A stretch of 45,107 bases of DNA, the filler included, from Jimgerdemannia flammicorona (lineage: Eukaryota), in the NCBI GenBank assembly GCA_003990765.1. It is 2 parts of 2 records of this genome, joined end to end, with 100 filler letters (N's around TTAATTAATTAA, not from the genome) between each part and the next. Parts side by side here need not be neighbours in the genome. Positions count along the whole stretch, not along the records: positions 22,605 to 45,107 come from RBNJ01001261.1; 1 more part is not named here. The stretch is one strand, 5' to 3'. Made by a program: the position numbers and the translations under genes. Shown here one piece after another: positions 13,523 to 45,043 of this stretch (positions are counted from its first letter, which is position 1; every line of letters starts with the position of its first letter). The notes under the pieces were generated by a model. That model was not told the DNA's origin. It made no database searches and was given only the letters and a program-made list of their open reading frames with translations.

Positions 13523-13561
13523 TCAGCCCCCACTGAAGGGTAGTCTGTCTCAGACTATTCT

Positions 13562-14076: not shown

Positions 14077-14169
14077 GATGTAGGGGGGAAATATAGTTTG
14101 AGGTGATTGATGTATACTGGTGTCCTCAGGGTTCATCCATCCATGCTTCTTAAATAGATACTGGTTCCT

Positions 14170-15100: not shown

Positions 15101-15136
15101 TTAGGGTGTAGTTCCTCAGGACACCCTTCTTCTGAT

Positions 15137-21085: not shown

Positions 21086-21101
21086 GTTGATTTTGAAATC
21101 T

Positions 21102-21118
21102 TCCCAGTTGAGCCCCCA
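21102..21118 (-). promoter_or_regulatory. Primer-binding site, tRNA-Pro-like
   Basis: TGGGGGCTCAACTGGGA lies 2 nt after the LTR end and resembles the tRNA-Pro PBS TGGGGGCTCGTCCGGGA. Confidence 0.75.
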
Positions 21119-21120
21119 AA

Positions 21121-21862: not shown

Positions 21863-22504
21863 TAGTGCATCGCAACCCGAGCCGACCCATGTACATATTT
21901 AACCTGACCCAGAATTATACGTCACCCATCTTTAACCCGACCCGGAATTATATGTCACCCATCTTTAACCTGATCCGGAATAATACGTCACCCGTCTTTA
22001 ACCCGACCTGGAATAATATGTCACCCATCTTTAACCTGACCCGGAATTATATGTCACCCATCTTTAACCCGACCTGGAAACATACGTCACCCATCTTTAA
22101 CCCAACCCGGAATTATACGTAACCCATCTTTAACCCAACCCGAGAAATATACATGACCCGACCCGAGAAATATACATGACCCGACCTGAGAAATATACAT
22201 GACCCGACCCTGACCCGTATTTAACCCGACACAGACCTGTCTTTAATCCGCCTTTAAGCTATAAGGCACCAAAAAAAAAATATTACACATCTAAGATATA
22301 TATTTAGAATAAACAAACAGAAACATAATTAGGAATCAGAAATCAAAATGAAATCGGAAATAAATAGGAAGTAAATCAGGAAAATAAAGAACTTACCGGT
22401 GTGAACAGATCTTACTCTTCATCGCTATAAACCAACTGATCCTCCTCTTCATCGCTATAAACCAACTGATCCTCCTCCTTCTCATATTCTGAACCATCTT
22501 TCTC
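21863..22504. mobile_element. End of a hAT-like DNA transposon inserted in the 5' LTR of B
   Basis: Starts TAGTGCATCGC, the same TAGTGC type of terminus as the 7893 MITE; subterminal ACCCGACCCG repeats; acidic minus-strand tail EDQLVYSDEEEDQLVYSDEE* at 22412-22504. The other end is lost in the gap. Confidence 0.65.
21899..22215. repeat. 33-bp tandem repeat (about 7 copies) followed by a 22-bp repeat (about 3 copies)
   Basis: TTAACCCGACCCGGAATTATATGTCACCCATCT units, then ACCCGAGAAATATACATGACCCG-type units. Confidence 0.92.
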
Positions 22505-22614: not shown

Positions 22615-25352
22615 GACATATTGTGAGAATCTGGCAGGAGGTGGAGGAGCTTAAAGGAGTGTTATAAAGGGAGGAGGAGGTGAAGTTGCAGGGAATGGTG
22701 ACCCAACTGCAGTGGTAGGGGCTGGAGGAGGGAGAGAGGCCTACTAGGTTTTTGTCGCAGATGTTACAGGCATGATGAATGAAGCAGCAGTGGGAGGGAG
22801 TTCTGGATGCAAATGGCAAGCTGGTGGTGGGGACTCCGGCTATTCAGGGCCTATTAAGAGCCAGATGGGGGAATCTATGGAGTGAGGAGGAGGGAGGAAT
22901 GGATGCTCTGGATGTTGAAAGGCAGCTGGGGGATTGGCACCTGGACACTGTGATGGGTCTTGGGGCATTGGAGGACCCAGTGAGTGATGAGGAAATTCGC
23001 AGGGTTGTGGCCTCGATGAGTAAAAGGACAGCCCCGGGAGAGGATGGGCTTCCCTGGGATTTTTGGCAGAAGATGGCTGGAGTGGGCGAGGTGCTAGAGG
23101 AAATGACTACTATGTATGTGTGATGGAGTTCTTCGGTCTGGTGCTTGGATTGGTGGACAGCACTTAGAGCTAGTCTCCTTGCTCTCCAAGAATAAGTGGA
23201 GGCGAGAGGACTGGAAGAACTGGCAGCCAATCATGCTTCTTGACATGGACCGAAAACTGGTGACAAAGATCTTGGTGATGAGACTGCAAGGAATCGCTCA
23301 GTATGTGCTTGATGTGGAGTAGCATGGGTTTGTCAGTGGCTGGTTGATTTGAGATGGGACAGCTTGGGTACATGGCATGATTGAAGATGCCTAGGCAACA
23401 GGGGTGGATGGCAGATTGGTATTTCTGGACCAAGAGAAGGCTTATGATAGAGTGTGGAGGATATGGCTGGAGGGAGTGCTGAGATGGATTGGTATTCCCC
23501 CAGGGTTCCAAGGATCATTGATCAGCCTCTTGGAGGACAGTCAGGCAGCATTGGTCATCAATGGCCACAGGGGGGTGACCTTTCCCCTGGGATGCGGGGT
23601 ACCGCAAGGGGATCCCTTATCGCCCATATTGTATGCCCTTTCCCTGGAGACTCTACTGGACAGAATTCGGCATCAGATTGGGGGTTTGGACATTTTAGAG
23701 ATTAATTGGAAGGTGGGGGCCTTTGCTGATGATATGGTGGTCAGACTGGGCTCCTTGGTGGATGTGGGGGAGTTACAGAGGTTGAAATGGTATGAGAGGG
23801 ATTCTGGTGCTAAACTAAACTGACACAAATGTGAGACTCTGGTATTGGGTGCTGGAATTGTTGGTGGTAATGTCATTGGGACAGTGGTATCAGCTGGGGA
23901 ACCAGTGCATTATTTGGAGATCTACTTCTCAGTGTTAGGATCTCTTCTTCCCCGGGCATGGTGGGACTGCAAACTTCTGGAGTGGGGAAATGTTCTGTGG
24001 TGATGGGGAGGTCGGCATATATCACTAGCTGGAAGGGTGATGGTGCTGAATGTGTATTGGATGCCTAAGCTGTGGTATGTGAGAAATCATTTGGATTTCC
24101 CAACCTGGGTGGTCAAGGGGCTGTTGAAGATGGCAAAGTCATGGATCTTAGGAGGGCAGTGGAGCCAGGTGGGTTGGGAGGTGCTCACACTGCCCTTGGA
24201 AAGAGGTGGGCTGGGCTTAGTGGACTTTACTAAGCAGCTTCAATGTTTGAGAGCTTGGTGGTTGTGAAGGGCAAGTGAGCTTGGGGGTCAGGAGTGGGTG
24301 CCACTTATGCAGAGGTTGTGAGAGATTTGGTCCTCCCCACGTGGTGGCTTGGGTGACCTGCTCATGATGGTGGCCATGGATGGGAGTAGGAGGAAGTGGT
24401 TTATGGGCTTCTGGTGGGGGGTGGTGGATGGTGCTAAGAAAATTGGACTTCAGTGGTGAGGTGATGAAGCCGAGGAGGATTGGGGACCGCAGATGTGGCA
24501 GTGGGACAGGCTTCTGCTGGGTGGCATTCTGGTGGAGAACTTTCAGCTTAGTGAGGGTTTGGAGTATCTGCAAGGCCTAGATAGAGACCTGTGGCCCAAA
24601 GCCTGGCAGAGGGTTGGAATTGGTGAGAAGTGAGATTGGAATGGACTCTGGATTTGGAGCAAAAGGGAGAGGCAGTGGCTGCCCCCCAAGTTCTGGGTGT
24701 TGTGGTGGCATGTCCTATGGTGGAATGTGATGTTGAACTATCGATCTGGGCACTTGATAGCCAGTAGAGTGTTTGAGTATAAGGATTGTTTCGGTGTTGA
24801 TCAGGAGGGAGGCGTGGTACAAATGCCTGAACATTGGCTTGGCAAGTGCAAAGTTTTGGAGGAGTTTTGGAGATATATTATGGACTGGGTAGGGCAGGGT
24901 GCCTTGGAGGGTGAGGAAGGGGGGAGATGGGGAGAGCTCCACTGGTGACTAGTGGATGGGGTTGGGGATGAATGGCTGACCCTTAGTTGGGCTTTGGCTA
25001 TGTGGGTTGGGTTAGCTAGACATTGGGTTCATGTCTTCGAGGAGGGGTGGCAGGTTGGGGTTGGGGACAAGGTGGCATGTTGGGAATAGTTGCTATTGGA
25101 CATTTTGAATAGCTGGTGGCAAGGTTGGGGGCTGGGTGGAGGGTACCACAGGGGTTTGGTGCAGTGTATCTCCTGGAAGAGTAGTGGGTAGATTCAAGTA
25201 GTGGGTAACTGGGTGATGCTTAGGCAGGGGGAGATTGAGGGGAGAGGGTTGGGTCCATGGGGCATTGGTTGAGGGTGGGGGTGACATTGTATTGTTAGAA
25301 TTATAGACATCAGTAATAAAGGGCAGTCCAAGAGACTATAAAAAAAAAAAAG

Positions 25353-25400
<48 letters not shown>
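22615..25400 (+). mobile_element. L1/Tx1-like LINE: ORF2 RT and C-terminal region with long poly(A) tail
   Basis: TAPGEDGLP, KNWQPIMLLDMDRK, FLDQEKAYDRV, GVPQGDPLSP, AFADD, LPLERGGLGL; AATAAA at 25315; poly(A) about 25340-25400. Confidence 0.95.
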
Positions 25401-25798: not shown

Positions 25799-26031
25799 TG
25801 TAACAGTAACTCCAGAATGATGATATCAGCATAGGAGATAGCCTTTCTTTGCAAGCCACCAGATTGGAGCACAAGAAGATCATATGGCATATAAGATAAG
25901 AATGATAACCAACTGTGAGTCATTGTGACCATAGTATTGGTATCTTGAGAAATATAAAAGAAAGGTCAAGGAATTACAGTAGCAGCAACCAATAAGACCT
26001 ACCAATCCCAAAATAGCTCAAAGACTTTAAA

Positions 26032-26871
26032 ATGTCTGCTGCTCACCAAACCTCAAGTTCAAGAAACCACCAAGGTGCCTCAGTTGAAGAAAGGATGTTC
26101 TAAGACATCTGAAGAGCAATGAGGACCCATACAAGAAGAACACCTAGTGTCAATCTGGGTACTAGTGACTCTTATCATTATATCCTCTACTACTGCAAAA
26201 TGGAAACAAGGATCACCATTACTACCAAATGCCTCCAAATGTGGCAGGAGTATGAAATAGAAAACCTCCTCTGCTGGGAGTTCTCACAGACCAGCACTCA
26301 AGAGCTACAAGATGCCACTCCCATAGATATACATGAAATAAGAACAGCTAAGAAGATCTATCAGATCCTCAGGCATGCACTATGGTCAATCCCCAACTTG
26401 GAGTATGTTAGAGTCTCAGATTTAGACCTATCAGCCTGCCATATCAATGTACTAGATGCCAGGGTTGCTACAGAAGCCCAGTTTACTCTCACCCTCAACA
26501 ATGATGAAGTAGAAGACTTCTGGCATCCCATCCTTCAGGACAACTCAGACCAATACCTACAAGGATTGATCTCAGTATTCCAAGGCCCAAGCATCCAGGT
26601 TAGACCTCCTCAAGACCCCACATTTGTCTCCTATTTTGTGGAAGAGAACCTCATAGACTAGCGAGCCCCAGACCTCCTTGTTTCTACTACTGCTGAATGT
26701 GATGACATCATCAATAATAACATCATTCCAAGTAACATATGCGAGACACATGATATATACAAAACATACAACCTATGTGATGATGACAAATTCATGGACC
26801 TCATCTCCTTCAAAGACATCCCAACCTCTGATGAGAATAAAGCCTCTATCATCTTGAACATTCTGCTCTAA
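26032..26871 (+). pseudogene. LTR-encoded accessory protein, 5' LTR copy (about 279 codons if stops are read through)
   Basis: ATG at 26032 is in frame with ORF 26119-26661. Its early stops are sense codons in the 3' LTR copy and vice versa. TATAAAA at 25953. The TAG at 26659 is shared by both copies and may be the true end. Confidence 0.75.
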
Positions 26872-27419
26872 AGTTCTTTGGTGACACCAAATTATGCCAG
26901 CACTGGCATTCTGATGTGATACTGAATTATACCAGCATCCTGAACTTGTGTAACCATTTGTGCTAACTCTTGAACTTAGCAGTTTTTTCTGTCCTGGCAT
27001 TTTATTTTAGTTATTAGAATTTATATTTAGCATTATATCTTAACAACCATTGAATTATATTTTGTATAAATACCCCTCTTATTTCCTCTGAAATAAAGTC
27101 AGTCAAGTTCACTTACATACAATTCCTTACAAGCAATCTAAGAGATAACAAAACAGTTTAAAGATAAGAAGTTTGAGGACCATAAGACCTTGGAAAGATA
27201 CTCCAATAAGAACTTGCTTATAACAAACTTGAGTTAGTCTAAGAGATACACCTTGAAGAGAATCAGAAATATTTAAAGAACTCAGCAACCACTATATGAC
27301 TACTTGGTGTCCATTGGCTGGTGATTCAAGATAAATCCCTCACTTTCAAGCTAAACAACAAACAACTACTACAACAACTACCCTGACTACAAGAGCCACC
27401 CCTGCAACAATTCAAGATA

Positions 27420-28700
27420 AGATGGAAATACATTCCCTCACATTTTATAGATATACTACTAAAGAGTCAATCCTGATCTTCATTGAAGACTTTGAACAAA
27501 TTGCTGCTATATGAGCCCTTGGTATTGATGTACAATTGGTCCTGAAACCAGTCAGCCTCAGAGGACCTGCCAGAGACAAGTTAAATGCAGCCACTATTGC
27601 TGATAATGGTACAGCCAAACTTGTCAATATAAAGGCCTTCCTCAGAACAATATACTATACTGAAGAGATTAAGCAAGCTCTCAAGGATCAATTCAACACT
27701 ATCTTCCAGGGACTCAGTGAAGATCCCAACTTATTCTATTCCTGAATCTGCTATCAGATTGTCTTGGCTGGCTATAATGATGCCCTCAAGGAACAAATAG
27801 CAGATTCAACCTTCCTCAAAGAAGTTCATTCCGAAATTGCCCTAGCAATCTGGTCTATTCTAGCTGCACTGACCCTTGATCAGAAAGTGGTCTTTGCACA
27901 GAGATATTGGACTACCAGACACCCCGCTGAATACTCAATAGAGAAAATAACTGACATTAAGATAGAGCCATCAAAGCCAACTAATATCATATCCACTACA
28001 GTTGTAAACAGATAATCATCCCCACCTACTCCCAAGATAACCAAAGCCAACCTAGTGGAGGAACTTGCCAAGCAGTTCACTGAGATAACTGTACATCTTA
28101 GTGATGTTGTTAGAGAAGTCTGAAGTGCCAACAGGAGACCAGTACAGAGATTTGCAGCTGCTATAGAAGAATGCAACATTACATACTTCAGATATAGAGA
28201 AGAAGGTCACTATGCAAAGAATTGCATGACTGAAACAAGATACAAAACCCAATTAAGCAATACTAGTAGAACCAGAGAACAAACCAATACAGTAGTCATT
28301 GAAGAGATTAGTGATACTGATGATGAAGAATACTATGAGGAGCTCAAATTCAACCCTGCTACTGAAGGTACCAGAACCCAGTCCAAGCCCTATAACAAGA
28401 AGAGCAATAGCAAGTCAGTTGGAAGACCAAAGAAGACCCCAGCTGTTACTATCCAAAGCAAGACCCAACTCAAGGAGGTTGATCAAGACATGGGGTTAGA
28501 TGAAGCTGCCTGTCAAATCATTAAAGACACTACTCCAGTCTCAGGAGAAAGTGAAAACAACAAGGAACAGAATCTGTGCAAGACCAAGATCCACCAGTAT
28601 GATATCTATAAGGATCTCAAGAAACAGAAGATCAATGCTACTTTTGCATAGCTAGCTGAAGTCCCTGCCTTCAGACAGCAGTTGAGAGTAGGACTTACAA
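27420..28700 (+). pseudogene. gag: Gag of element C
   Basis: SLRGPARDKL, QGLSEDPNLFY; decayed knuckle TYFRYREEGHYAKNC at about 28180-28225. Confidence 0.8.
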
Positions 28701-28799
28701 CTACTGCCAAGAATCAAAAGTACAAGATTGTAGAAGCTCACAATGTACAAGAAGAATCAGAACATTCAGGTAAAGAATCTGAAGACCAGCACAAGATAT

Positions 28800-29150
28800 C
28801 AGACTATACTCTATATCAGATTGAAGATTGTATCTTTGATGCCATCATTGATACTGATGCTGGAGGATGTCTCATGAGTAAGAAGGCAATTGACTGCCTA
28901 GGCTGGGATATTGAAGAGTCCACCAAGATGGTCTATGTTACAGCAGATAGCACATGAGCTACCCCTCTTGGCAAAATCCAAGAAGTCCCCATCAAGATAG
29001 GAGGAGCTACCATCCCAGTATATGTAATTATTATAAGTGCCACCAACTATGACATCCTCATTGGTAACCAATAGCTTCACAAGACCAATGCTATTATTGA
29101 TCTCAATGCCCAGAAGATGCAGATCAACTATAGAAAGAAATATACTAGTC
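28800..29150 (+). pseudogene. pro: Aspartic protease of element C
   Basis: AIIDTDAGGCLMS ... NYDILIGN. Confidence 0.85.
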
Positions 29151-29509
29151 TCTATCAATGTCCACAAAGGAGTTCTATCAGACATAGAGAAAGGAGTTGA
29201 AGAGAACACAGAAGTCTTCATGCACTTGGTGAACAAGAATAAGAACAAGACCCCTAAGCTCACTGATGAGCAGTGGTATAACAAGATCATTGATATCTAT
29301 GCCCCTCAAGAAAGAAGCCCCCCTGGTACTAGAATGTACTGCTCTGAACATCTGAATGACTGCTGGTTCTATATCAGTGAAGTCAGAAAAATCCATCAAC
29401 AGAAATATGAGCTAGAAGCTACTGAAGCAAAAAAGAAAGCCAAAGAAGATGACCAGACCCCCAAGCTTCAAGCTGACAGTGATGATGAGGAGAAATAAGA
29501 ACCAGATAT

Positions 29510-29925
29510 CACTCTCAAGGTCAAGAAGTTTCACCCTAAAGCCAAGATCTCAGAATATAGGACTGAAGGAGCTATAGGAATAGACCTTGCCAGCATTCAA
29601 GATGCTACCCTAAAACCACAGACCACCACCCTACTTGGCACTGGAATTAGAGTAAAGCTGCCAGAGAACCATGCCAGAATTATCAAGACCAGGAGCAGTC
29701 TGGCCAAAAGTGAAATCTTAGTTGAAGGAGGAGTAATTGACCCTGATTATACTGACAAGATCTCCTCATAGTCAGGAATCATAACCCCACCACCCCATTT
29801 GACATCAAGAAGTATGATAGGATTGGTCAGATGCTGATCTACAAAATCAAGAAGTCTAAGATCACTGAAGCCATTGAACTCATCAAGACCAAGAGAGGAG
29901 AACAAGACTTCAGATCTACTGGAAG
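29510..29925 (+). pseudogene. dut: dUTPase of element C
   Basis: KFHPKAKISEYRTEGAIGIDL, IKTRSSLAK, EGGVIDPDYT; motif V remnant RGEQDFRSTG. Confidence 0.9.
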
Positions 29926-30076
29926 AGAAGCCTATACCACTAACAAGATTACTGAACTTGAGCACAAGAAATACAGAGACTAGAGCAAGCACATATATAC
30001 CATTGGAGAAAACTTTCCCCTGGAAGAACAACTTCTCAAAATCCTGCACCAGAACAAAGAAGTACTTGGTACAGAC

Positions 30077-31410
30077 TTGAGAGATATCTACAATCAAGGA
30101 TCCAAGTACTACCACAAAGTTGACACTAGTGATACCAAGCCCATCTACCAGAAAGCCAGACCTATACCACCTGCTGACAGAGAATGGCTGCAAGCAGAAC
30201 TCAAGGAAATAGAAGAAGTCAGAATAATCAAGCAAGCTATCAGTCACTGGGCTTCACCTATTGTCCTTGCTCTGAAGAAAGGAAGCAAGCCTGGAGAGTT
30301 TGCATCAAAACTCTGCATTGACTACAGGAAGCTCAATGTAATCACCAAGAAGAATAGGCAGCCCTTGCCAAATATTCAAGAAATCCTTACCACCCTTGGA
30401 AGTGAAGCCAAATACTACACTATCTTGGATCTGTTCTTAGGCTTCTATCAGATTAGTCTCACTTAAGATACCAGTGAGAAATCAGCCTTCATTATACCTG
30501 ATGCCATCTATATCTACCTGCAAATGCCATTTGGAATGTGCAATGCCCCAGCAAGTTTCCAGTGAATGATGAACAGAGTCTTCAGCAATGAGATTGAAAA
30601 ATGGTTCTTTGTCTATATTGATGATATAATCATCTTCAGCAACACTGCACAGGAACGTATCAATCACATACAGCTAGCCCTCAAGAAGCTCAAGAAGTAT
30701 GTCCTCTATATCAAGCCCAAGAAATGTAAGTTTGTAGCTCAAGAAATTGCCTACCTAGGACACCTCATCAATCAGACTGGAATCCACACAGACCCCATGA
30801 AGATTGAGGCTGTTGCAGCCTATCCAAGACTCAGATTAACCACAGAAGTCCATGCCTTCTTTGGACTGACCAGCTACTACAGAAGATTCATCAAAGAATA
30901 CTCCAACATTGCAGCACTATCTATGTATTACTGAAGAAGAAAACCAAATTTGAATGGACCAAGGAATACTAAGAAACCTTCAATGAACTCAAGACCAGGT
31001 TGTCCCAAGCACCTATCCTCAGAAGACCAGATTGGAAACTAGAATTCATCCTGCAGACAGATGTAAGTACTATAGGACTAGGAGCCATCCTAGCTCAGAA
31101 GAAAGATAGATATGAATATGTCATCTCCTATGCAAGCTGAGGTACTAGTAGAGCAGAACAGAACTATAAGTTATACAAGCTCGAATGCTTAACAGTAGTT
31201 TGGGCAGCAGACAAGTTCCACTACTACCTAGCTGGAAAATACTTCATCATTCAAAAAGACCATTCTACTCTTACCTGACTATTCTACACTCTGAACTCCA
31301 AAGGAATATATACCAGATGGATCAATAGGCTGCAAGAGTATAACTATACTCTCAAGCACTGCTCAGAAAGAACCAACACCAATGCTGATGCCCTCTCAAG
31401 GACACCCTGA
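30077..31410 (+). pseudogene. pol: Reverse transcriptase and RNase H of element C
   Basis: SHWASPIVL, LCIDYRKLN, MPFGMCNAPASF, VYIDDIIIFS, ILQTDVS. Confidence 0.95.
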
Positions 31411-31649
31411 AATACCTCCATCAAGACTATTTAATATAAATAAGGAGTTATACTATGGATTAATTGGCTACCTTGGGTAATAGAAGATACCCAATCACCT
31501 TGAACCCTGGACAATCACTATTTTCAATCAGACTTGAAAACAGTTTGAACTAGACAACACTATACTCAGAAAAGAAGGAAAGCTAGTAATACCCAAATAC
31601 AAGAAGTATCAAGTATGAAGGAAGTACACAAGTAAGGACACCTAGGAGG

Positions 31650-32922
31650 TTCCAAGCTATGGTATGTGGCATATCATCTAGACTTCCCAGCTTGGGTGGT
31701 GAAGCAGCTGACAAAGATGGCTAGAGATTGGATTTGGGCTGAGAGGAGGTCCCAGATCAGTTGGGATACCCTTGCAACTCCAGTGGTTAGGAGAGGACTA
31801 GACCTTGTGGATTTCCCTAAGAGGTTGCACTGTCTGCAAGCCTGGTGGTTGAGGAGAGCTGTTGAATTGCAGGGAGGGGGTTGGGTGCTGCTGCTGCAGA
31901 GGGTGTGGTAGATGAGATTCTCTCCTCAAGGGTCCTCAGGAGATTTGCTTGCTCTGGTGGGGCTGAAGGGAAGTTGATAGCTGTGGTTTAAGGGCTTCTG
32001 ATAGAGGGTGGTAGATAGAGCATACTGAATCAGCCTGCACTGATTGGGCAATGAGAGAGAGGTGCCTTAGGGTCCAAATATGTAGCAATGGGACAGATTG
32101 CTTCTGGAGGGTACTCTGCTTACTGAGTTTGACATTGGGGATGGAGTGGAGTATCAGCAGGGTCTTGTCCAGGATCTTTGGCCAAGTGGATGGCAGGCAG
32201 CAAGGATTGGTGAGGAGTAGGACTAGGCAGGTGTCTGGTCATAGAGTGCTGAGGTGCAGAAGTGGCTTCCTCCCAAGTTCTGAGTAGTGTGGTGGCAGAT
32301 GCTACAGAGGAACATCATGTTGAATTTCTGTGCAGAGCATCTGGTGGAAGGTGGCCAATTAGATTGTGAGGAGTGTTATGATGTGGGGCAAGTTAGGGAA
32401 TTTGTGTAGATGCCAGAACATTGGCTGGGAGAATGTGAGGTGCTGCAGGACTTTTGGATAGAAGCAGAAAATCAGCTGGGTGTGGAGTGACAGCTAGATG
32501 GTGAGTGAGGCTGCTGGGAGGATTTGAGATCTTGGCTAGTTGGGGGTGTGGGCAATAGTTGACTTACTGCAGGGTGGGTTTTAGTGGTGTGAGGGGGATT
32601 AGTTGGACATTGGCTCTTTGTCTTCAAGGAGGGGTGATAGTTGGATTTACAGAGAAGTTGTTAAGATGGAAGGAGTTGATGGAGGGTGGGTGGGTTGAAG
32701 TCTCCAGGGGGGGCAGTGTCATTGTCTGGTGGAAGGGATCTGTGAACAGAGTGGTGGGCAGGTTGCAATAGTATTAGACAAAGTGGTCTTTCATTGAGTA
32801 GGAGTGGTGGGGAGAGGCCCCCCTAGGGGGATTGGGTGAGAGATGGGCTCAATATATTTATATAAGATAGAATGGTGTATTAATAAAGGAAGGAGTCCAA
32901 GAGACTATAAAAAAAAAAAAAA
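31650..32922 (+). mobile_element. 5'-truncated L1/Tx1-like LINE inserted in the integrase of element C
   Basis: Homologous to 24061-25340; poly(A) 32909-32922; about 14-bp TSD GGACACCTAGGAGG / GAATACCTAGGAGG. Confidence 0.92.
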
Positions 32923-33918
32923 TGGAATACCTAGGAGGAACCAATACATATGACAAGGAAAGAAGAGCTATGTAGTAGTCTAAAATAGAAGAAGACCTGC
33001 ACCAATTTGTCAAAGGTGTGATAAGTACCAAAAACAGAAATAAGATCAGCAAGACCAGGTACCCAGGTCATCAAGAATTGAGCCTATCCCCTTCCACCAC
33101 ATCACAATAGATATCGTTGGGCCACTACCAGTAATACTATCAGGAAACCACTATATTATAATTATTATAGACCTCTTTACCAAATGGATAGAAGCAGGAG
33201 CATTACAAGAAGCCAATGCCCTCTCTATAGCCAACTTCCTGCACTGAGAAATCATCTGCCACTACAAGACACCAAAGCAAATCACAACAGACTATGGCAC
33301 AGAATTTGTCAATGGATTCTACAAGATAATGTATTAGAAATGCAAGATTCAGTACATCAAGACCACTGCATACCACTCTCAAGCAAATGAACAGATAGAG
33401 AGAACTAATAAGACCCTCAAGAACATCCTGGCAAAGATCTCAGAGACATATAAGAATTGGTATAACTACCTTCCAACTGCCCTCTCTGTCCTATAAGACA
33501 TATAGTCACAGAGCATACACTTTATCCCAAGAGAACTGCTCTTTAGAGAAGAAGATTCTGATGGAACCTTAGCAATAAATCTAAACCTAACTTGGAGATA
33601 GGTTGATGCAGAAATCCAGAGACTACACCAAATCAGAAAGAAGGCTGAAGATTATATCATCAAGTTACAAGTATTGATAAGAAAAAATGAAGAAAAGAAT
33701 TACAAGACTCTAAAACCCATCCAAATCATAGAAAAGGTCCTACTGTATCGAAATATAATAGAAGCCTCATGGTTGCAAAAACTGGGGCCCAAATGGAAAG
33801 GACCCTTCCACATGTAAGATATCAAGAGAACTGCCTTATGGCTTAGAAAAATCTCAGAGACCATACTGCCTACTACAGTACATAGGAACAGACTCAAGAA
33901 GTACCATGAACCTATATA
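32923..33918 (+). pseudogene. int: Integrase of element C (N-terminus at about 31560-31649)
   Basis: IDIVGPLP, ITTDYGTEF, TTAYHSQANEQIERTN, PKWKGPF. Confidence 0.92.
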
Positions 33919-34524
33919 AGAGAAGCAAAATATGATGACTGCCCATGAGGTTCTAGTCTGTGAATCATAACAGCATGTTCCATAACCAACAAGCTATCTG
34001 TCTGGACTATTCTCTAAGGGATATAGCACCAGCAACTATTCATCCATAAGACTTTTGAAGTCAGAGGAGTTTGAACTGTCAACTGATTGATCAAGATCAG
34101 AATCAGGCCCTTGCTCTATATGAAGGAAATGACTCTTCACCATTATGCCAAAATACAAAGGGAAGATACCAGCCCATAAATACCACTTTTCGACCCCTTG
34201 TCAGAGGTTATGGGATCAGCAAATTTTTCAGGACTGGACCAATGAATAAGGATGCTTGAGAAGATCCTTATTCATGAGGAAGATGTAATAGTGATCCCAG
34301 AATGATGATATTAGCACAGGAGACAACCTTTCTTTACAAGCCACCAGATTGGAGTACAAGAAGATCAGATGGCATACAAGATAAGAATGATGACCAACTG
34401 TGAGTCATTGTGACCATAGTATGGGTATCTTGAGGAATATAAAAGAAGGATCAAGGAACCATAGTAGCAGCAACCAACTAAACCCACCAATCCCAAAATA
34501 GCTCAAAGACTTACTACAAATAAA

Positions 34525-35366
34525 ATGTCTGCTGCTCACCAAATCTCAAGGTCAAGGAATCACTAAGGTGCCTCAGTTGAAGAAAGGATGTTCCAAGACA
34601 TCAGAAGAGCCATAAGGACCCATACAAGAAGAACTCCTAGTGTCAACCTGGGTACTGATAACTCTTATCATTATATTCGCTACTATTACAAAATGGAAAC
34701 AAGGATCAGTATTGCTACCAAATACCTCCAAATATGGCAGGAGTATGAAATAGGAAACCTCCTCTGCCAGAAGTTCCCACAGGCCAGCACCCAAGAGCTA
34801 CAAGATGCCACTCCTATAGATATATGTGAAATAAGGATAGCTAAGAAAATCCATCAGATCTTCAGACATGTACCATGGTTGATTCCCAACTTGGAGTATG
34901 TTAGAGTCTCAGATTTCAGAGACCTGGCAGCCCACCATATCAATGCACTAGAAGTTAGGGTAGCTACAGAAACCCAGTCTACTATCACTCTCAACAGTAA
35001 TAAAGTAGAAGAATTCTGGCTTCCATCCTCCAGAACAACCCAGACCAATTTCTGCAAGGATTGAACTCACTATTCCAAGGCCCAAGCATCTAGATTAGAC
35101 CTCTCCAAATCCACACATTTATTCCCTATTTTGTGGAAGAGAACCTCATAGACTAGAGAACCCCAGATCTCCTTGTTTCTACTACTGCCAAATGTAATGA
35201 CATCATCAGCAATGACATCATCCCATGTGATATACATGAGATGCATGATATATATGAAACATGCAATCTATGCAATGATGACAAATTCATGGACCTTATC
35301 TCCTTTGAAGACATCCTGACCTCTGATGAGGATGAAGCCCCTATGGTCTTGAACATTTTGCTCTAA
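34525..35366 (+). pseudogene. LTR-encoded accessory protein, 3' LTR copy
   Basis: MSAAHQ..EERMFQDIRRAIRTHTRR..WQEYEIGNLLC..IAKKIHQIFRH; TATAAAA at 34438; frameshift near 35020. Confidence 0.75.
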
Positions 35367-35796
35367 AGTTCTTTAGTGATACCAAATTGTGCCAGCACTG
35401 GTATTCTGATGTGACACTGAGTTATACTAACATCCTGAATCTGTGCAACTATTCATGCCAACCCTGGAACTTAGTAGTTTTTCCTGTCCTGTCATTTTAT
35501 TTTAGTTATTAGAATTTATATTTAGCTTTATATCTTAGCAATCATTGAATTATATTTGGTACAAATACCTCTCTTATTTCCTCTGAAATAAAGTCAGTCA
35601 AGTTTACTTATATATAATTTCTTATGAGCAATCTAAGAGATAACAAGATAGTTTAAAGATAAGAAGTTTGAGGACTTTAAGATCTTGTGAAGATACTCCA
35701 ATAAATACTTGCTTATAACAAACTGGAGTTAGTCTAAGAGATACATCTTGAAGAAAATCAGATATATTTGTAGGACTCAGTGACTACTATGTAACA

Positions 35797-38700
35797 TTAT
35801 ATATAACTTGTAGCATTTCATTCTTCAATATTTCTCTATTAGTTTCAAATTGTTTCCATATTCTATTAATAATCATTTGTGACTATTCTTCCTGATGTTA
35901 GAGTATCTTTCACTATCCTAAATCAGTGATAATTCTATAGTAAAGCTCTCAATTTATTGTTGATTTGTAGATTGGGAGTCCTTTGGAGTAACTGTGAGAG
36001 AGTATCTGCATTGACATTAGTTCTTCCAGAGCAGTATATGATAGTTATATATATCATAGACCTGCAACTTCATAATCTATCTAGCTTAGATTCCTTTAGG
36101 TTATCTGATGATTAGTAGTCAGATAAGGACTAAATAGTCTATCTATATGGTGAATTATCTTCTGATGAGATAGTAGTGGAACTTTTTTAGAGCCCAAATA
36201 ACTGCAAGACATTTCAACTTATAGGATTTATATTCTTTTTTAACTCTTTGGGTACTTCTGCTATGATATATAATAATATACTCTACTTTATCTTTCTTTT
36301 AAGCCAGTCTTTATATACTTACATCTATCTGTAGAATGAATTCTTGAGTCCAATTGGGTCTTCTGAGAATGGGTGCTTGGGTCAGTCTGATCTTGAGTTC
36401 ATCAAATGCCTTTTGTTATCTGTCTGTCTATTGAAACTTGATATTCTTCTCATTGATTTCATAGTTTGATCCTGTGATGTTGAAAAATTCTTTAATAAAT
36501 CTACAGTAGTATAAGGAGAGTCCCATAAAGGCTTGGGTTTCAGTGACAGTAGTGGGCCTTAGATTTGCTACTACTGCTTGAATCTTGAGAGAATTTGTAT
36601 ATATTCTATCTCAGTTGATAATATGGCTAAGGTAGGAGATCTTGATTTCTGCCTTGCACTTCTTGGACTTAATATATAGGCCATACTTCCTTAGCTTCTA
36701 CTGGATGTGCTGTAGGTGTTCCTCTGGTATCTTGCTGTAGATAATTACATCAGTCAAATAAACCATTATCCATCTTCTTATATCATAGTGGAAAATTTTG
36801 TTCATTATTTTCTGGAAGCTTGCTTGTATATTGTACATTCTGAATAGTATTTATAGATAGATATAAGTTCTATCTAGGGTGATAAAGGCTGACTTCTCAC
36901 TTGTTGCTTCTGTGAGGCTGATTTGATAGAATTCTGAATATAAATCCAAAGTATAGTAATATTGTGCTTCATCTTTCAGAGTCACAAGAATATTACTAAT
37001 GAGAGATAGTAATTGGTAATCCTTCTTAGTAGTCAGGTTGAGCTTCCTAGTAGCCAGGTTAAGCTTTTTATAATTAGTATAGAGTCTTAAGATAAATTAT
37101 CCTTATTTGCTTTCTTTCTTCAGAGCCACTACAACTGGTGAAGCCCAAGGACTGCTGGCTTCTTTAATGATACCAGCTTCTTCCATCTACTTGATTTCTT
37201 CTCTGAGTCATTTGCAGTAGACTGATGGAATTGGTTTTGCTTTTTGATAGATTGGTTCAGTATTCTCTATATCAATATCATGATAGCAGCATGGAACCTT
37301 TTCTTTAATATCCTTGAAATCTATAGCCAGAACATTCTCAAATTCATAAAGTATCTTCTTTAGTCTTTCCTGAGTGAGAATTCCTTTTCAATAGTATAGC
37401 TATACTTATTGCAGTTTCCTCCTTCTTGTGGTGCAGTTCAGTAATCTTAGTACTGATTAATACTCCTCTTCCTGTAGATCCAAATCTCTTCCTTCCTCTC
37501 TCTGTTTTTTCCAACTTCTTGACTTCCATGATCTTTGGCTGAAGAACTGGGAAGATTAATATCTATATAAGTCAGTCCTTCTTCTTGATTAGTAATAGAA
37601 TCAAAGAGTTATAGTTCTTAGCAATGAGTAATATTTCTCTGATATAATTGGAATTGATGACTTCTTCAATAGTAATCTCACTCTTGACTAGGCTGCTTCT
37701 TGTCTTGAGAATTCTGATATAGTCTTTTGGAATAGTTATCTCTAGATTAGTTGGGAGTAGAGTAGTTGTCTGGGGCTCAAGTACAGTTTCTTCTACTGTA
37801 GCAATATCCATTCCAGCTGAATTCTCTGACTTATATTCTAGTAAGACTGTATTAGGGTGGATTTTCCAAATCTTAACCTTGATCTTCTCTTCATCATCAC
37901 TGTCTTCTAGAAGGGCTAGTGGTTCATCATCTCTTCTATCTCTTTCTCTTCTCATGTTTGTTTCTCAAGAGCCTTCTGTCTTTTTTTATAGTAGATCTTC
38001 TTGATTCCACTGATATACTAGTAGCAATCATTGATATGCTCTATATAATATATCTTGATTTCATGAGAGCAGACATTTTATAGTATATATTCTTCAATAA
38101 TCCTCCTGCACCAGTTTCTTTCACTGATCTATTCAACTTCTTCTTCTTTTTTGGAGTGGTCACCTTGTAGGTTTCTTCTTGCTCACTTTCTTCTTCTCCT
38201 ATTTCAGGGAGTACTCCTTTATTGATATTGATGGGAATCTATATCTTCTGTTCTTGGTAGATAATCTATATCTTCTGTATATTCAGACTGATTATTGCCC
38301 TGGCTTTATGAAGCTATTGGTTGCCAATATTAATGTTATAGTTGGTTGTATTAGTTACAATAATATTTACTGAGATGGTTGCTCTTCCAAACTTAATAAG
38401 GACATCTCAGATCTTTCTCAGAGATGTGGCTCTTATTCTATCTGCTGTGATGAATACAAACTTGATTGCTTCTTCAACCTCCCAACCTAGACAGTCGGCT
38501 ACATTCTTGCTGAGGAGGCATTCTCCTAATCTAGTGTCAATGATGGCCTTGAAGATTCTATCTTCAATTTGACAGGTTGTATAGGCAGAGATCTTATAAT
38601 TATCTTCACATTCTACTCCTAAGTCTTTTTGAATATTATTGGCCTCAGTTATCTTTCAACCTTGCTCCTTTATTCTCTCAGAAAGTTCATATCTCATTTG

Positions 38701-39874
38701 CTGTCTAAATGTGGAGATTTCTCTCAGCTGGCCAAAGGTTGCATTGACTTTTTATTGGCTGAGATCCTTGAAGATATCATACTTAAAGATCTTCATTTTG
38801 TGAAGCTTTCAGTTCTTTTCTCCTTCACTGACTAGGACTGGAGTACTTACTCAGATTATATCTTAAACTACCTGCTCAAGCTTCATATCTTGATTTATTT
38901 CTTCAGCTTTGCTTTCTATATCAGTTTCTATTTTTTACTCTACTGAGTTCTTCTTAGATCTCTCTGGTAGTCTCTTGTAGGATTTCTTATGAATCCTTCT
39001 TAGTGATCTGAACAGAGTAGGCCTCTCATTCTTCTTTGTCAGATTCTCTAATTTCTTTAAAGATAATAGTTTTGGTCTGTTCTCTATTCTGAGTTGAATT
39101 GTTTAGTTATATCTTATACTTGATTTCACTTAAATATTTATATGAGGAGTGGTCTTCTTCTCTACAAGTATAGCAGGTACCTCTCTTCTTGTCTGAGGTA
39201 GCAGCAAACTTCTGAACTAGAGTGAGCTCTTTCTCTAATATTCTTTACTATATCTCTTAAGTAGGTATTTATTTCAGCAACTTCTTGACTAGTTTCTCCA
39301 TGGGATCACTGCTTCTTTACTGCTCAGTAGCTCTTAGGTAAGGTGTGTTTTAATTGATCACTATAGTGGAGATTATGCTGGTTGCCTTGGGTACTTTGAT
39401 TCTAACTTCAGTGACTCTTTCTATTATATGATCTTGAAGATGTCTTGCTATCCAGTATTACTGGGCATAGGTAACCTTCTGTTCCAGATCCTGGACTACT
39501 GATATAAGTAGATGGCCATGGCTATTTCTGGATAGACTCTCTTTATAAAAGTTGTCTCAGCTAATTGATCTTGGATAGAAGTATTATAATCTATAAGAAT
39601 TATCTAATATTAAATTCTAATATAGAATATATTTAAATCCTTACTTATTCCTTAGCATATTACATTGACCTAATCCTTTAGAGCTTGTTTGATCTCATCT
39701 GTATAATAGGTGACTCTAAGCTAGGCCTTCTGTGCTGTCAGTACAGTATCATCATCATTTTCTATATAGGTTATAGCTGTAATTACTGCTCTTGCTGTAC
39801 CTCAAAGACTGAAGGATATAAGGACTACTTGTTGCCTTACTGTCAGGGTTCTTATCTCTTATATCATAATAAGA
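35797..39874 (-). mobile_element. Old degenerate Gypsy element D, main body (gag, PR, dUTPase, RT, RH), related to C
   Basis: RH about 35990-36370, RT about 36600-37300, dUTPase about 37470-37880 (SAGMDIA, KTRSSL, RGRKRFGSTG), protease KAIIDT at about 38535-38552. Confidence 0.88.
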
Positions 39875-40329
39875 TATAGATAAATTTGCCTGCCAAAAAA
39901 AAATATATTGTGGTGTTGGGTTTGTATCTCTAGTTGCTTCTAGCACGGCTCAATGTACCACTTGGTGAAGCACGCGATGTATAACTGAAGGCGTTGGTGA
40001 CATTCGCGGGTCGTTGGTCATGTGATCAGGTCGTTCAATATGTGCGATAATAGCGGGAGGTCGTTCGACGATGGCTCAATTGTTTAGTGGATAAGGGCGG
40101 CGGTTATACTGGCTAAGTTTCCTGGTGGCGATTAACTTGGCGGCAAACTCGGCGACAGTCTTGACTTTAAACGGTTCATGGTGCAGTAGGTCGGAAAATG
40201 GAGGTTGATGGCTCACTCATCCGTCTTGACTTGTTAACTTGAAAGGTTCCTGGCGGTCGTTTGGGTCTTTGGCAGCGGGTCGGTCTTTGGCAGTCTAGTA
40301 TCCTTTGGCTGGGTATCCTTGGGTTTCTG

Positions 40330-41340
40330 GGTCTTGAATCTCGAATGGCGGTCCGAATGGTGGTCCAAATGGCAGTCTGAATGCGCGGCGGTCGGGTAAC
40401 ATTTTCTTTCTGTGGCAAGAGAAAATTCTTTAACTCAAACTTCCGAGCAATCCATTGCTCTAGGTTGTTATCTTGTTCTCAGAATTTATCTGGTCTCTTG
40501 GAGGCAGTGTGTTTTCTCTGTAAAACTATCTGACTTGCGGGTGGTCTGTGGTCTTGAATCCTTGGCTGGGTCTCGGGTCTCGAATGGCAGTCGAATGGCG
40601 GCGGTCGGGTAACGTTTTCTTTCCGTGGCAAGAGAAAATTCTTTAACTCAAACCTCGAGCGATCGTTGCTCTAGTTATCTTGTTCTCAGAATTTATCTGG
40701 TCTCCTGGAGGCAGTGTGTTTTCTTTGTAAAACTGTCTGACTTGTGGGCGGTCCATGGTCTTGAATCCTTGGCTGGGTCTCGGGTCTCGAATGGCAGTTG
40801 AATGGCGGCGGTTGGGTAATGTTTTCTTTCCATGGCAAGAGAAAATTCTTTAACTCAAACCTCGAGTGATCATTGCTCTAGTTATCTTGTTCTCAGAATT
40901 TATCCGGTCTCTTGGAGGCAGTGTGTTTTCTGTAAAACTGTCTGACTTGCGGGTGGTCCGTGGTCTTGAATCCTTGGCTGGGTCTCGGATCTCGAATGGC
41001 AGTCGAATGGCGGCAGTCGGGAAACGTTTTCTTTCCATGGCAAGAGAAAATTCTTTAACTCAAACCTCGAGCGATCGTTGCTCTAGTTATCTTGTTCTCA
41101 GAATTTATCTGGTCTCTTGGAGGCAGTGTGTTTTCTCTGTAAAACTGTCTGACTGAGGGTGGTCCGTGGTCTTGAGTCCTTTTCGTGGCGGCAAAACTTG
41201 AAATTCAGGCGGCAAGAGAAATTCCTTAACTCAAACTTCCGAGCGATCCGTTGCTCTAGGTTGTTATCTTGTTCTCAGAATTTTCTGGTCTCTTGGAGGC
41301 AGTGGTTATTTCTCAAAACCAGTTGACTGAGGGTGGTCCT
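40330..41340. repeat. About 205-213-bp tandem repeat, about 5 copies
   Basis: GCAAGAGAAAATTC(T/C)TTAACTCAAAC recurs at 40415, 40628, 40835, 41040 and 41212. Confidence 0.95.
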
Positions 41341-42026
41341 TCAAATATCTCCATAAGACTCATTAGGTGATCTTGATGGTTGTCTTGGAGTGGGGTGGTG
41401 TGGAAACCTGGTTGAGTAGGTTTGGTTTGTTGGCTTCCTACGGCGATGCGGTTGCTACCAATAGAGTTGGCTACTTCAGATTCTATCCAGTCAGCATCTT
41501 CAGTTGAAAGGTGGGAGAGGCTGCCAGCCATTACTCCTTGCAAGTGTGCTATGGCCCAGAGAATATGGCAGAAGATTTGGTGGACACGGAGGGCTCTCTT
41601 GATTAGCTGGCTGGTGGTTAACATTTCGGCAATGAGGTCTTCCTGGTCACCTTCTTGAGTCTCATTGCAAAGGTGGTGTCCAATTTCGTAGTCATGCCAG
41701 AGGGTCATTCATTTGGTAGTGTCTTTGAGCTGTTGGGTCATTATATACCAGTAGTTGATGAAGTGTCCAAGGTCCTCAGTGTAGAAGTTCAAGTGTTCGG
41801 AAGTATCTGGGCACCAGATGGCCTTCTTGATAACTTCAAAGATCAGGGTCTTTGGGCCAGGCAAAGCGGTAGAGTGGCAGGAGGTCTGGTTGGATCGGCA
41901 AATGGGAGGTATTGTGTGGTGGGTACTTGGTTCTTTGGTGCCGATCCCTGAGGCAGAGTATGGTTCCTTAAATAACGTGGTCTTCATTTTGGCTCGGATC
42001 ATCTTGTCTTCTTTTGGGATGATCAC
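41313..42026 (-). pseudogene. LTR-encoded accessory protein of family E (two in-frame ORFs split by one TGA, probably from CGA)
   Basis: LIFEVIKKAIWCPDTSEHLNFYTEDLGHFINYWYIMTQQLKDTTK*MTLWHDYEIGHHLC..IKRALRVHQIFCHILWAIAHL..PLQDNHQDHLMSLMEIFEGP aligns with the family C LTR ORF. Confidence 0.8.
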
Positions 42027-42300
42027 CTAATGGGTCAGACTGTCTATTTGATTGTCATGCCATTATGTCATCTGATCTTAGCAGTCACCAGTACTCTGTT
42101 GTCAATTGCGTATGTCACAATATATATTTTTATACTTAATATTTAGAATAAAATTTTATATATATATATATATATTTTTTTTTTGACAAACTTCAAAAAT
42201 TGTATTTTTAAAAATATTTTGACTTAATATTTAATATAAAAATCATAATAATAATTATTTTTAAATTTGTTCTTTTTTTTTATAGACAAATTTATCTGCA

Positions 42301-43000
42301 AAGTAATATAAAGAATAGCAGTATATTACTCAAATCATCAATAAAGGTAATGATTGATTCATCTGAAGTATATCTATAAAATACTTATAGTTTTATATCC
42401 ATCTTGTCTGAATGTCTTGGTTTGATTTATATAGTTTTTTAGATAATAGCAGTTATTTATTATTTAGTTTAAAAGTGAGGAATTTATCTTAAATTACTAG
42501 CTAATTGACACTAAGTTGTAATGTAGTAGATGCTTAACTATGTAAGTATATGTATCAGATTTTTATATCTTGAAATCTTGATCTTCTTTAACTCTGCAGA
42601 GTCCTTGGGATGCAGAGGTAGGTGAGTACAAAGTATATCTGTCTGTAGACTTCCTAGTTCTCTTATTTTCTCTTTACTTTGAACTATTTTGATCTGAGAT
42701 TTATATACTCTGGATACTGTGGAGATTTGTACAGGTTTTCTAGCTATAAAGTGGTTAAGTTATGACTGTGTTCTAGTGTGTTACTCTTAATAGGTATTAA
42801 TCCTTGATATCTGTTAAATCTTTAATATTTGAGAAATATCAATATTTGTGAAAATATTAACATTGTCAAACTTTAATATTTGTGAAATGACTACTATTTG
42901 TAAGGCTATACTATATTTGGGAATTGGATTTAGATACTATAATTAAATATCTATTCTTCTGATTCATGTTTCAAATTTAGATCAACTATTATAATATTTA
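42301..43000 (-). mobile_element. 5' part of element D (gag start and leader)
   Basis: Reverse complement of about 42310-42405 matches the gag start of C (AAGATGGA..TTTTATAGATATACT..GAGTCAATC). Confidence 0.65.
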
Positions 43001-44387
43001 TTTTTTTTTTTTTTTTTTTTATAGTTACATGGACTCCTTCCTTTATTAATATACCTGTCTATCCTCTAAATAATATACAAAGCCCACCTCTAATCAATCC
43101 CCCTAGGGGGTCCCCCCCTCTCCACTCTCTCTCAATAAAAGACTACTTTATCAAACACTATCTCCACCCATCCACCACTCTGTGTATAGATCTCTTCTAC
43201 CAGACAGTGATGTCACCCACTCTGGAGACCCCAACCAACCCACCACCCAGTCAGCAAATCTCCCATCAAACCCTCCCAACTCAACAACTTCTCCTATATA
43301 TCTATCTGGTACCTCTCCTTGAAAACAAAGAGCCAATATCCAGCCAGCCCTACCCATACTGCTAAAACCCACCCTACAGTGAGTCAACTATTGCCTACAC
43401 TACCCACTAACCGAGATTTCAAATCCTCCCAGCAACCTCTATCTCTATCTGGCCTCCTCACCACATCCAAAAGTCCTCCAGAATCTCACACTCTCCTAAC
43501 CAATGTTCTGGAGTCTACACAAATCCCCCCACTTGCCCCACATTGTAACACTCCTCACAATCAAATTGGCTACCATCTACCAGATACTCTGTATGGAAAT
43601 TCAGCATAATATTCCTCAACAGCATCCACCACCACACCATCCAGAATTGGGAGGAATCCACTGCCATACCTCAGCACTCTACAACCAGACTCCTGCCCAG
43701 TCCCACTCCTTACCAATCTCCACTCCTTGTCAGCCACTGGGCCAAAGATCCTGGCCAAGTCCCTGCTGACATTTCACTCTATTACCAATATCAAACTCAG
43801 CAATCTGAATACCCCCCAGAAGCAATCTGTCCCATTGCCACATAGCCAGACCCCACTCCACCTCTCTCTCATTGTCTTGCCAATACAGACCTATCCAGTA
43901 TGCTCCATCCACCACCCCCCACCAGAAGTCCTTATATCATAACCATCAGCTCCCATTCAGACCTATCAGAGAGAGCAAATCTCCTGAGGACCCTCAAGAA
44001 GAGAATCTCATCTCCCACACCTTTTGTATCAGTAGTATCCAACTCCCTCCCTGCAGTTCCATAGCCCTTTTCAACCACCAAGCTTGCAGGCAGTACAGCC
44101 TCTTAGGGAAGTCCACAAGGCCTAGTTATCCCCTATCTACCAGTAATGCTAGAGTATCCCATCTGATCTGAGACCTCTTCTCTGCTCAAATCCAATCTCT
44201 AGCGAGTTTCATCAGTCTCTTCACTACCCAAGCTGGAAAGTCTAAGTGATAGGTTACATACCATAGCTTGGGGAGTCAGTAGACATTCAGAATCAATACC
44301 CACCACACCAGGGAGATGTGGTGACCTCCCCAACCTCTAAGATCTTCTTCCCAAATAGTCACCCTCCTCTCCCACTACACTCATAGT
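43001..44387 (-). mobile_element. 5'-truncated L1/Tx1-like LINE, same subfamily as 31650-32922
   Basis: Poly(T) 43001-43020; 16-bp TSD ACTATTATAATATTTA (42985-43000) / ACTATCACAATATCTA (44388-44403). Confidence 0.92.
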
Positions 44388-44653
44388 ACTATCACAATAT
44401 CTATATAATAGTTTCCATAAGAATTATATAAAGAATAAAAAGTTCTGATATGTATCTATTTAAAGAATAATCAAAGTATATTCTGAATATCCTAAATCTT
44501 ATCTATATAGATATATAGAGCCTGATATGTACTTCTTCCTATAGTGAAAAGAGATATTTTATCACATTTATTGATAATTATAATAGAAGACATATATACA
44601 CTTCTTATCAGCAAAAAGCAATACTCTGGAGAAGTTTAAAGAGTTCTAAGTAT

Positions 44654-45043
44654 TGTGATAAACCAAGATATACCACTCAAATTATACCTTAGCTAGTTGA
44701 TGTGAACAATTAGCCAGATGATGTAAATACACAGCATAGTAATCAGCAACCATTGCTGTGGAAACTGTATAATTAGCTGAACATACCAGATAGGGTCTGT
44801 TTATCTGTACAGACTCTGTACACCATACAGGTCCTGTACACTGTACAGACTTTGTATACCTGCCATAAGTAGCAGATCAATAGTTAGCCACATAGTAACC
44901 AGATAGCAACCAACTTGTATAAATTACCTCAGAGACAAGAGTGAATAAACCTCAGTCTGAAATTCAGAATATATTTCAAATCTGGTTTACTTTCCGATAC
45001 AAAGAAGAGTCCAAAATTGAATCAAAAGACAAGTCTGCCTACC
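44654..45043 (+). repeat. Start of another family-B LTR
   Basis: TGTGATAAACCAAGATATACCACTCAAATTATACCTTAGC matches 10491 onward. Confidence 0.9.

Follow-up and report, generated by a model that had tools for sequence, protein, structure and literature searches.

The window analysed here is a stretch of 45,107 nucleotides from the genome of Jimgerdemannia flammicorona (assembly GCA_003990765.1), made of two record parts joined by 100 filler letters. Towards its right-hand end it contains a unit with ends like those of a long terminal repeat (LTR), designated E, which carries the remnant of a protein gene. A homologue of this gene occurs in the LTRs of a Ty3/Gypsy retrotransposon in the same window, designated C, which is complete but decayed (Table 1). 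E is a bounded insertion, and with respect to its ends the homologue is placed and oriented as in C: the start codon lies 208 nt from the 5′ end of the unit in E, versus 234 nt in C.

Read on its coding strand, which is the minus strand of the window, E runs 5′-TGTGACA...CCACCACA-3′ and closes with CACCACA. It thus possesses TG...CA termini and a short terminal inverted repeat (TGTGACA...CACCACA), with ATATA(T) on either side. The plus-strand junctions are ...aaaatatat/TGTGGTG at 39909 and TGTCACA/atatatat at 42119. The GC content of the unit is 0.474, as against 0.336 in the left 1 kb and 0.227 in the right 0.9 kb of flanking DNA. An earlier reading made from the sequence alone (the sequence-only reading) had described a discrete 2.2-kb TG..CA unit with an ATAT duplication and without gag or pol. 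Both limits of the unit are confirmed, the duplication being of low complexity, and no Pfam family was found in the three ORFs (open reading frames) of E that were scanned, tblastn returning the accessory ORF only. A Pfam scan of stop-to-stop ORFs covered 39 of 117 (plus strand, 22.8–34.3 kb; minus strand, 36.4–44.9 kb). Rfam gave no matches at E ≤ 0.1 in the region 39500–42600, and ARAGORN predicted no tRNAs over the window. The tandem repeat downstream of the ORF differs in copy number among contigs from other samples, whose joints skip 156–709 bp.

The sequence interrupted by E is C′, an old, decayed and AT-rich Gypsy element related to C; self-BLASTN of the window delineated it from 42534 down to 35995. 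The insertion point falls between the equivalents of C 27510 and C 27632. Since E separates the first two blocks in which C′ is colinear with C, it entered the gag 5′ region when C′ was already in place. An imperfect direct repeat of ~22 nt, recognized by eye at 39877–39898 (ATAGATAAATTTGCCTGCCAAA) and 42282–42303 (ATAGACAAATTTATCTGCAAAG), encloses E and an AT-rich stretch of 163 bp. Just upstream, C′ contains a third, similar copy. Either an earlier insertion, into which E then landed, may have produced this repeat as its long duplication, or the duplication may be local.

The element C is the reference showing that the gene family resides in LTRs, as its accessory gene lies entirely inside each of them. 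An insert at 31652–32922, within the internal region of C, resembles a reverse-transcriptase-bearing repeat found at 22.7–25.4 kb. In the 5′ LTR, the motif TATAAATA at 27065 and AATAAA at 27092 are located ~200 nt past the ORF and ~200 nt before the LTR end; because both come after the ORF, the gene is assigned to the U3 (unique 3′) part of the LTR. Another TATA-like motif is found 62–87 nt ahead of the start codon in all copies examined, namely the two copies of C (C1 and C2 in Table 1), E and the metagenome locus L001 described below. It was detected by a scan for TATA[AT]A[AT] in all of these except E. Conservation of this motif suggests that the accessory gene may have its own promoter.

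Table 1. Positions of E, its host element C′ and the reference element C in the window; the last row refers to a metagenome locus.
Feature	Position	Strand	Details
E unit, probable solo LTR, 2,211 bp	39909..42119	-	delimited by ends, insertion, contig breaks and GC
Putative target-site duplication ATATA(T), left copy	39904..39908	.	low complexity, weak
Putative target-site duplication ATATA(T), right copy	42120..42124	.	
Accessory-gene remnant in E	41313..41912	-	codons 1–194 of a ~325-codon gene; stop 41315–41313
TATA-like motif of E, TATTTAAG	41967..41974	-	62 nt before E start codon; by eye, not by regular-expression scan
Tandem repeat in E, downstream of ORF	40368..41181	.	period 207 bp, 3.9 copies, 92% matches
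C′, decayed C-like Gypsy element, host of E	35995..42534	-	colinear with C 27284–31398; dUTPase 37575–37964
Colinear block, C 27284–27510 (+)	42315–42534	-	first block of C′
Colinear block, C 27632–27851 (+)	39510–39729	-	
Colinear block, C 28195–28331 (+)	39028–39164	-	
Colinear block, C 28596–29191 (+)	38194–38783	-	
Colinear block, C 29892–31398 (+)	35995–37501	-	
C 5′ LTR, 1,497 bp	25799..27295	+	86.6% identity to 34284–35790 over 1,508 columns
TATA-like motif C1, ATATAAAAG	25953		79 nt to start codon
Gene copy in C 5′ LTR	26032..26868	+	279 codons, 3 in-frame stops; 70% identity to P0007 over 247 residues
C internal region	27296..34283	+	gag-like ORFs, dUTPase, reverse transcriptase, integrase
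C Pfam domains	29499–29980; 29984–30931; 33044–33244	+	dUTPase; RVT_1; weak rve
C 3′ LTR	34284..35790	+	self-BLASTN, ends
TATA-like motif C2, ATATAAAAG	34438		87 nt to start codon
Gene copy in C 3′ LTR	34525..35363	+	one in-frame stop, frameshift near 35025
TATA-like motif of L001, TATAAAAG	296 of L001		80 nt to start codon

The relationship between the two genes is evident at the protein level. BLASTP aligned the E ORF with the ORF of the C 5′ LTR (45/157 identical, E = 1e-16) and with that of the C 3′ LTR (37/131 identical, E = 6e-18), and all peptide pairs quoted in the sequence-only reading are contained in these alignments. Smith–Waterman scores were 160 and 157, respectively, compared with averages of 32 and 30 (sd 5) for shuffled sequences; the best of 1000 shuffles reached 59 and 65, so that none attained the real score (z ~25). 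At the DNA level, E and the C LTR gave no match in the window self-BLASTN at E ≤ 1e-5, and a word-7 BLASTN found one 95-bp stretch at 64%, located within the ORF. The earlier proposal that E is a second, DNA-divergent unit bearing a homologue of the C gene therefore stands. Purifying selection had also been proposed, on the grounds of protein conservation. Past selection at the protein level agrees with such conservation amid LTR DNA that cannot otherwise be aligned, and with the distinct intact ORFs of 247–342 aa on metagenome contigs.

The gene copy in E is itself a dead remnant. It is recognized as a pseudogene because it begins with ATA (41912–41910), contains an in-frame TGA (41711–41709) and lacks its C-terminal third. 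Contigs from two other samples, X1 and X5, have ATG at the start (place 41910, T>C), and relatives have R, W or Q aligned to the TGA. The match to intact relatives stops at 41331, covering residues 1–194 only of the 324-aa proteins, and the last ~130 codons are gone. These features, together with the minus-strand orientation of the ORF, correct the sequence-only reading, and its suggestion that recombination left behind a self-contained gene cassette fails for the same reasons, to which the lack of AATAAA and ATTAAA in E is added.

Copies from other samples help to define the ends of the unit. Six public sequencing runs hold parts of E (best share 0.19 of words), none of those listed being RNA. 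Contigs of four runs (X1, X2, X4 and X5) were compared with the window region 39409–42619; contig counts refer to the longest pieces listed, with 433 further pieces and 83 further loose ends beyond them. At 42119 at least five contigs (four from X1 and one from X4, representing two studies) leave the window into an identical sequence of 24 letters (agreement 1 in X1). On the element strand this purine-rich sequence reads ...GCAAGGGGCAGA immediately before TGTGACA, and since the contigs diverge at this point into a purine run, the 5′ boundary of E is fixed to the base. The run GCAAGGGGCAGA resembles GAGGAAGA, the purine run ahead of the C 3′ LTR, and judging by its letters looks like a polypurine tract, as expected next to a 3′ LTR. 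Two more contigs (X4 at 42125, X5 at 42127) run on into unrelated sequence, as at other insertion sites. At the other end, two X2 contigs have a common flank (agreement 0.87), which starts at 39903 and reads CA-ATATA-TGGTTTCTCCGC... on the element strand; TGGTTTCTCCGC could be a primer-binding side. Two loose-end sequences of other samples were searched for in the window and were not found there.

Differences between the window and the X1, X2 and X5 copies are mostly transitions, with a surplus of A/T in the window where the others have G/C (in X1, 32 A>G and 21 T>C vs 19 G>A and 15 C>T). Such an excess fits C-to-T decay of the window copy.

We consider it probable that E is a solo LTR, presumably with an internal deletion, of a Ty3/Gypsy family sister to C, and that this family carries an accessory gene in U3. 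A solo LTR is the best reading because of the TG..CA ends, the flanking duplication, the contig boundaries and the homologous position of the gene. The sequence-only reading of E as a gene-bearing solo LTR is thereby upheld to the extent that E is likely the solo LTR of a family sister to C, and fails in that the gene copy is broken.

Several observations weigh against this assignment. The flanking duplication sits in (AT)n-like low-complexity DNA, which makes it weak evidence alone, and it may have arisen by chance. The X2 contigs match, in addition, the six flanking letters 39903–39908, and therefore the true end of E or the extent of the duplication is slightly uncertain. The flank proposed for the primer-binding side (TGGTTTCTCCGC...) was matched to no tRNA. 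In E a regular-expression scan matched TATA[AT]A[AT] nowhere outside the ORF, and neither AATAAA nor ATTAAA was present; canonical signals that would mark off U3, R (repeat) and U5 (unique 5′) are thus missing. The function of the encoded protein is supported by no homology or fold in Pfam, PDB, ESM Atlas or AlphaFold2. Two further observations, concerning the integrity of the unit and its relation to gag-pol, each bear on a competing explanation.

With regard to integrity, no contig among those listed spans 41300–41336, and the samples cover opposite halves of the unit: X2 matches well over 39841–41352 and barely over 41353–42119, with the reverse in X1. Given this missing bridge and the opposite cover, E may have arisen by deletion from a longer unit or as a chimera. 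Three listed contigs (two from X1, one from X4; two studies) depart from the window sequence at 41331, where the second proline codon of ...EGPP ends. They continue, according to our own reading of the letters, with in-frame ITIEAPVGAT-like codons matching the intact proteins (EGPPITMEVPAGAT...). A chimera would consist of a 5′ part of 790 bp (the LTR start and codons 1–194) fused at 41331 with an unrelated tail (39909–41330) that bears the repeats, through a deletion or through recombination between different elements. The loose ends at 41331, the unspanned joint, the divided cover and the absence of the C-terminal ~130 codons would all follow from it. However, a simple internal deletion of ~0.4 kb or more accounts for the same data, and the same ATATA(T) around the whole of E, with LTR-like ends on both sides, fits integration in one piece. 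The contig evidence, moreover, comes from the longest pieces alone. We therefore regard a chimeric origin of the unit as unlikely and derivation by deletion as the likelier history of this copy.

With regard to gag-pol, no E-type pair surrounding it was seen in the window or in the one related metagenome locus of 1.5 kb. E could then be a non-autonomous mobile cassette, or a unit LTR-like at its ends only, that is moved in trans and never flanks gag-pol. The intact relatives of the protein, which are encoded on short contigs (0.6–4.8 kb, save one of 19.4 kb), would be compatible with such a cassette. Nevertheless, the C homologue resides inside true LTRs of a complete element, and both the purine-rich 5′ neighbour and the common 3′ flank seen in other copies of E fit an internal region, so we find this explanation very improbable in comparison with a solo LTR.

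The protein family to which the E and C products belong is small. Searches with the E protein gave 3 matches among 264 candidates and 6 in 1.84 billion representatives, and a profile search gave 12 matches among 5,379 candidates. Eight clusters examined comprise 15 member sequences, all from JGI/IMG and ENA assemblies, whose annotation never goes beyond 'hypothetical protein'. A scan of metagenome contigs yielded one related locus, L001, of 1,535 bp; it has an intact ORF of 291 aa and no gag-pol context, and a 33-nt direct repeat (170–202 and 1481–1513, 82% identical, 1,311 nt apart) brackets this ORF. Three protein types can be distinguished: the E type of 324–331 aa (for example P0009, with 75% identity to the window copy over residues 1–194), the C type of 247–271 aa (P0007, P0016) and a third type of 291–342 aa (L001, P0006). 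The MP[PA]..R N-terminus is common to all three. The helical core of the family contains the motifs W[HQ][ED]YEI, AKK.HQ.FRH.P and LQDN.DQ.LQ....F[EQ]GP, and in the acidic tail hydrophobic motifs recur (DLISF, DLINF, LNFLL).

No Pfam family was assigned to the E and C proteins at E ≤ 0.01; at E ≤ 1 there were chance-level matches only, to ATG5_HBR (2 of 16 members, best 0.088) and DUF3391 (1 of 16, 0.13). A profile search against PDB sequences gave nothing at E ≤ 5, the ESM Atlas query with P0009 produced no usable match, and viral and prokaryote genome contigs contained no relatives. In the same atlas, the dUTPase ORF matched generic dUTPase clusters only. Longer or fused forms of the family were likewise absent among 7,999 candidates scored, which is weak evidence. 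AlphaFold2 predicted mostly helices at a mean pLDDT (predicted local distance difference test) of 42.2 with an 11-row alignment and 44.5 with 16 rows, hence no confident fold. An orphan family of this kind, having no assigned function, might represent a host gene or gene fragment that was captured twice, or that lies in repeats by chance, with no role in the element. Against this, the gene is placed and oriented alike, as seen from the start of the LTR, in two DNA-divergent families, each of its three copies in the window belongs to an LTR or an LTR-like unit, and no relatives exist beyond the small set in 5.8 billion clusters and 1.84 billion representatives. Such a host origin seems to us the least credible of the explanations considered, with hardly any weight.

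Taking E as a solo LTR of a family sister to C, a tentative model of its history and of the accessory gene can be outlined. In both families the long LTRs (≥1.5 kb) would hold the whole accessory gene in U3, ~210–235 nt from the LTR 5′ end. Its product would be a mostly helical protein of 247–342 aa with an acidic tail rich in hydrophobic motifs and no known relatives. E would formerly have flanked gag-pol, and recombination between two LTRs would have reduced the element to the present unit; the flanking duplication, being retained, fits an event within a single element. As the gene of C lies upstream of the main LTR promoter (TATAAATA at 27065, with AATAAA at 27092), it would reach genomic RNA only via the 3′ LTR, in the manner of the MMTV (mouse mammary tumour virus) gene sag. 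It may besides be transcribed from a promoter of its own, via the TATA-like motif 62–87 nt before the start codon.

Since all homology and structure searches were empty, any function is a guess. With low confidence, we speculate that the protein could be a trans-acting regulator, for example an activator on the U3 repeats or a counter to host silencing. An activator of the LTR is the preferred guess because the tail is acidic and contains hydrophobic motifs and because the 207-bp repeats lie just downstream of the gene; a silencing antagonist or an RNA-handling factor would be alternative guesses. A bolder extension of the model is that the LTR constitutes a full gene unit, combining a TATA-like promoter, an ORF of 250–340 aa, U3 repeats and a poly(A) signal, and that every LTR, fresh solo copies included, keeps making a trans-acting protein serving the family until it decays. 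We hold this extension to be doubtful, and the combination of promoter, ORF and poly(A) signal does not hold for the decayed E copy. If it were true, LTR–LTR deletion would not silence the function until the solo copy decays.

A protein gene lying wholly inside an LTR is textbook knowledge for one retrovirus, MMTV, and the sag gene of this virus is the closest in architecture to the LTR-embedded gene described here. In MMTV, as in C, a whole accessory gene is situated in an unusually long LTR, upstream of the main LTR promoter; because of this position within the LTR, every LTR copy carries the gene. The same containment is found in C, where the ORF (26032–26868) lies inside the LTR (25799–27295) and before the TATA motif at 27065, and in E, where the ORF (41912–41313) lies within the unit (42119–39909). 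In contrast, MMTV is a vertebrate betaretrovirus, while C belongs, and E probably belongs, to Ty3/Gypsy, and the E and C proteins gave no sign of belonging to the Sag family in the Pfam (E ≤ 0.01) and PDB sequence (E ≤ 5) searches. According to the accessible part of the source, the MMTV LTR measures ~1.3 kb and owes its length to the Sag coding sequence in the 3′ LTR (PMC3026287).

Solo LTRs are common in fungi, and the crapaud families of Podospora differ mainly in U3, as stated in the sections available of the article describing them (PMC10787394). A crapaud solo LTR resembles E in standing alone, without an internal region and between the copies of a duplication, which in E is putative. 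However, the crapaud LTRs of those sections are 339–443 bp long and non-coding, whereas E spans 2.2 kb and contains a protein-gene remnant and 207-bp tandem repeats.

Extra genes besides gag and pol are a feature of other LTR retrotransposons too. In plants, rotifers and nematodes such additional ORFs (aORFs) belong to the internal part of the element, either ahead of gag or in the interval from pol to the 3′ LTR; the elements bearing them resemble C and E in having extra genes and differ from them in that the C/E ORF lies entirely within the LTR. The accessible text of a review on plant LTR retrotransposons describes aORFs of unclear function beside gag and pol, and the wordings 'in the LTR' and 'within LTR' occur nowhere in it (PMC7264820). 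Similar ORFs are reported, in the available portions of the respective articles, from bdelloid rotifers and from Cer1 of C. elegans (PMC5408684, PMC10309623).

Among fungal Ty3/Gypsy elements, PosPlaTy3-5 of Postia placenta has the order PR (protease)–dUTPase–RT (reverse transcriptase), and the accessible text of its description includes a figure legend that mentions an 'add. ORF' in some elements (PMC2864245). In C and C′ the dUTPase is likewise placed just before RT; dUTPase-bearing Ty3/Gypsy elements also occur in Phanerochaete and Tuber. A difference is that no LTR-embedded gene is described in the accessible text on PosPlaTy3-5 and related elements (PMC2864245). For fungi, a full-text literature search, with subscription journals and figures outside its scope, found no LTR retrotransposon with a gene embedded in its LTR. 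Should the family prove real and active, the set of Ty3/Gypsy proteins would gain an orphan accessory member, and the unusual length of the LTRs would be explained. The family would also raise the question of whether a solo LTR, usually seen as a harmless scar, keeps expressing a gene that serves the element.

The window contains several other repeats. A further Gypsy element (12084–21860, minus strand) has 740-bp LTRs (12084–12822 and 21121–21860, 91% identical) and ORFs for dUTPase, RT–RNase H and integrase, with no ORF in its LTRs; a 33-bp tandem repeat is present at 21861–22173. A strongly G-skewed repeat occurs in three copies, at 22700–25400 (plus), 31652–32922 (plus) and 43007–44332 (minus). 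The first of them contains RVT_1 (23395–23820) followed by a long A run at ~25345–25400, and the second is the one inserted in the pol region of C; the repeat is probably a non-LTR element resembling long interspersed nuclear elements (LINE-like). A ~330-bp repeat of unassigned kind, 76–80% identical among its copies, is found at 10485–10839, 13185–13522 (minus) and 44648–44966.

A 423-aa ORF (1914–3185, minus strand) directly precedes a reverse-transcriptase fragment (821–1321, minus strand; weak RVT_1, below the Pfam cut-off) of a different, GC-rich element. Its product has a Cys/His-rich end and starts with MPPICRS, the same heptapeptide as in the N-terminus of the E gene. Homology between the two proteins was rejected, as the heptapeptide alone matches (BLASTP E = 0.14).

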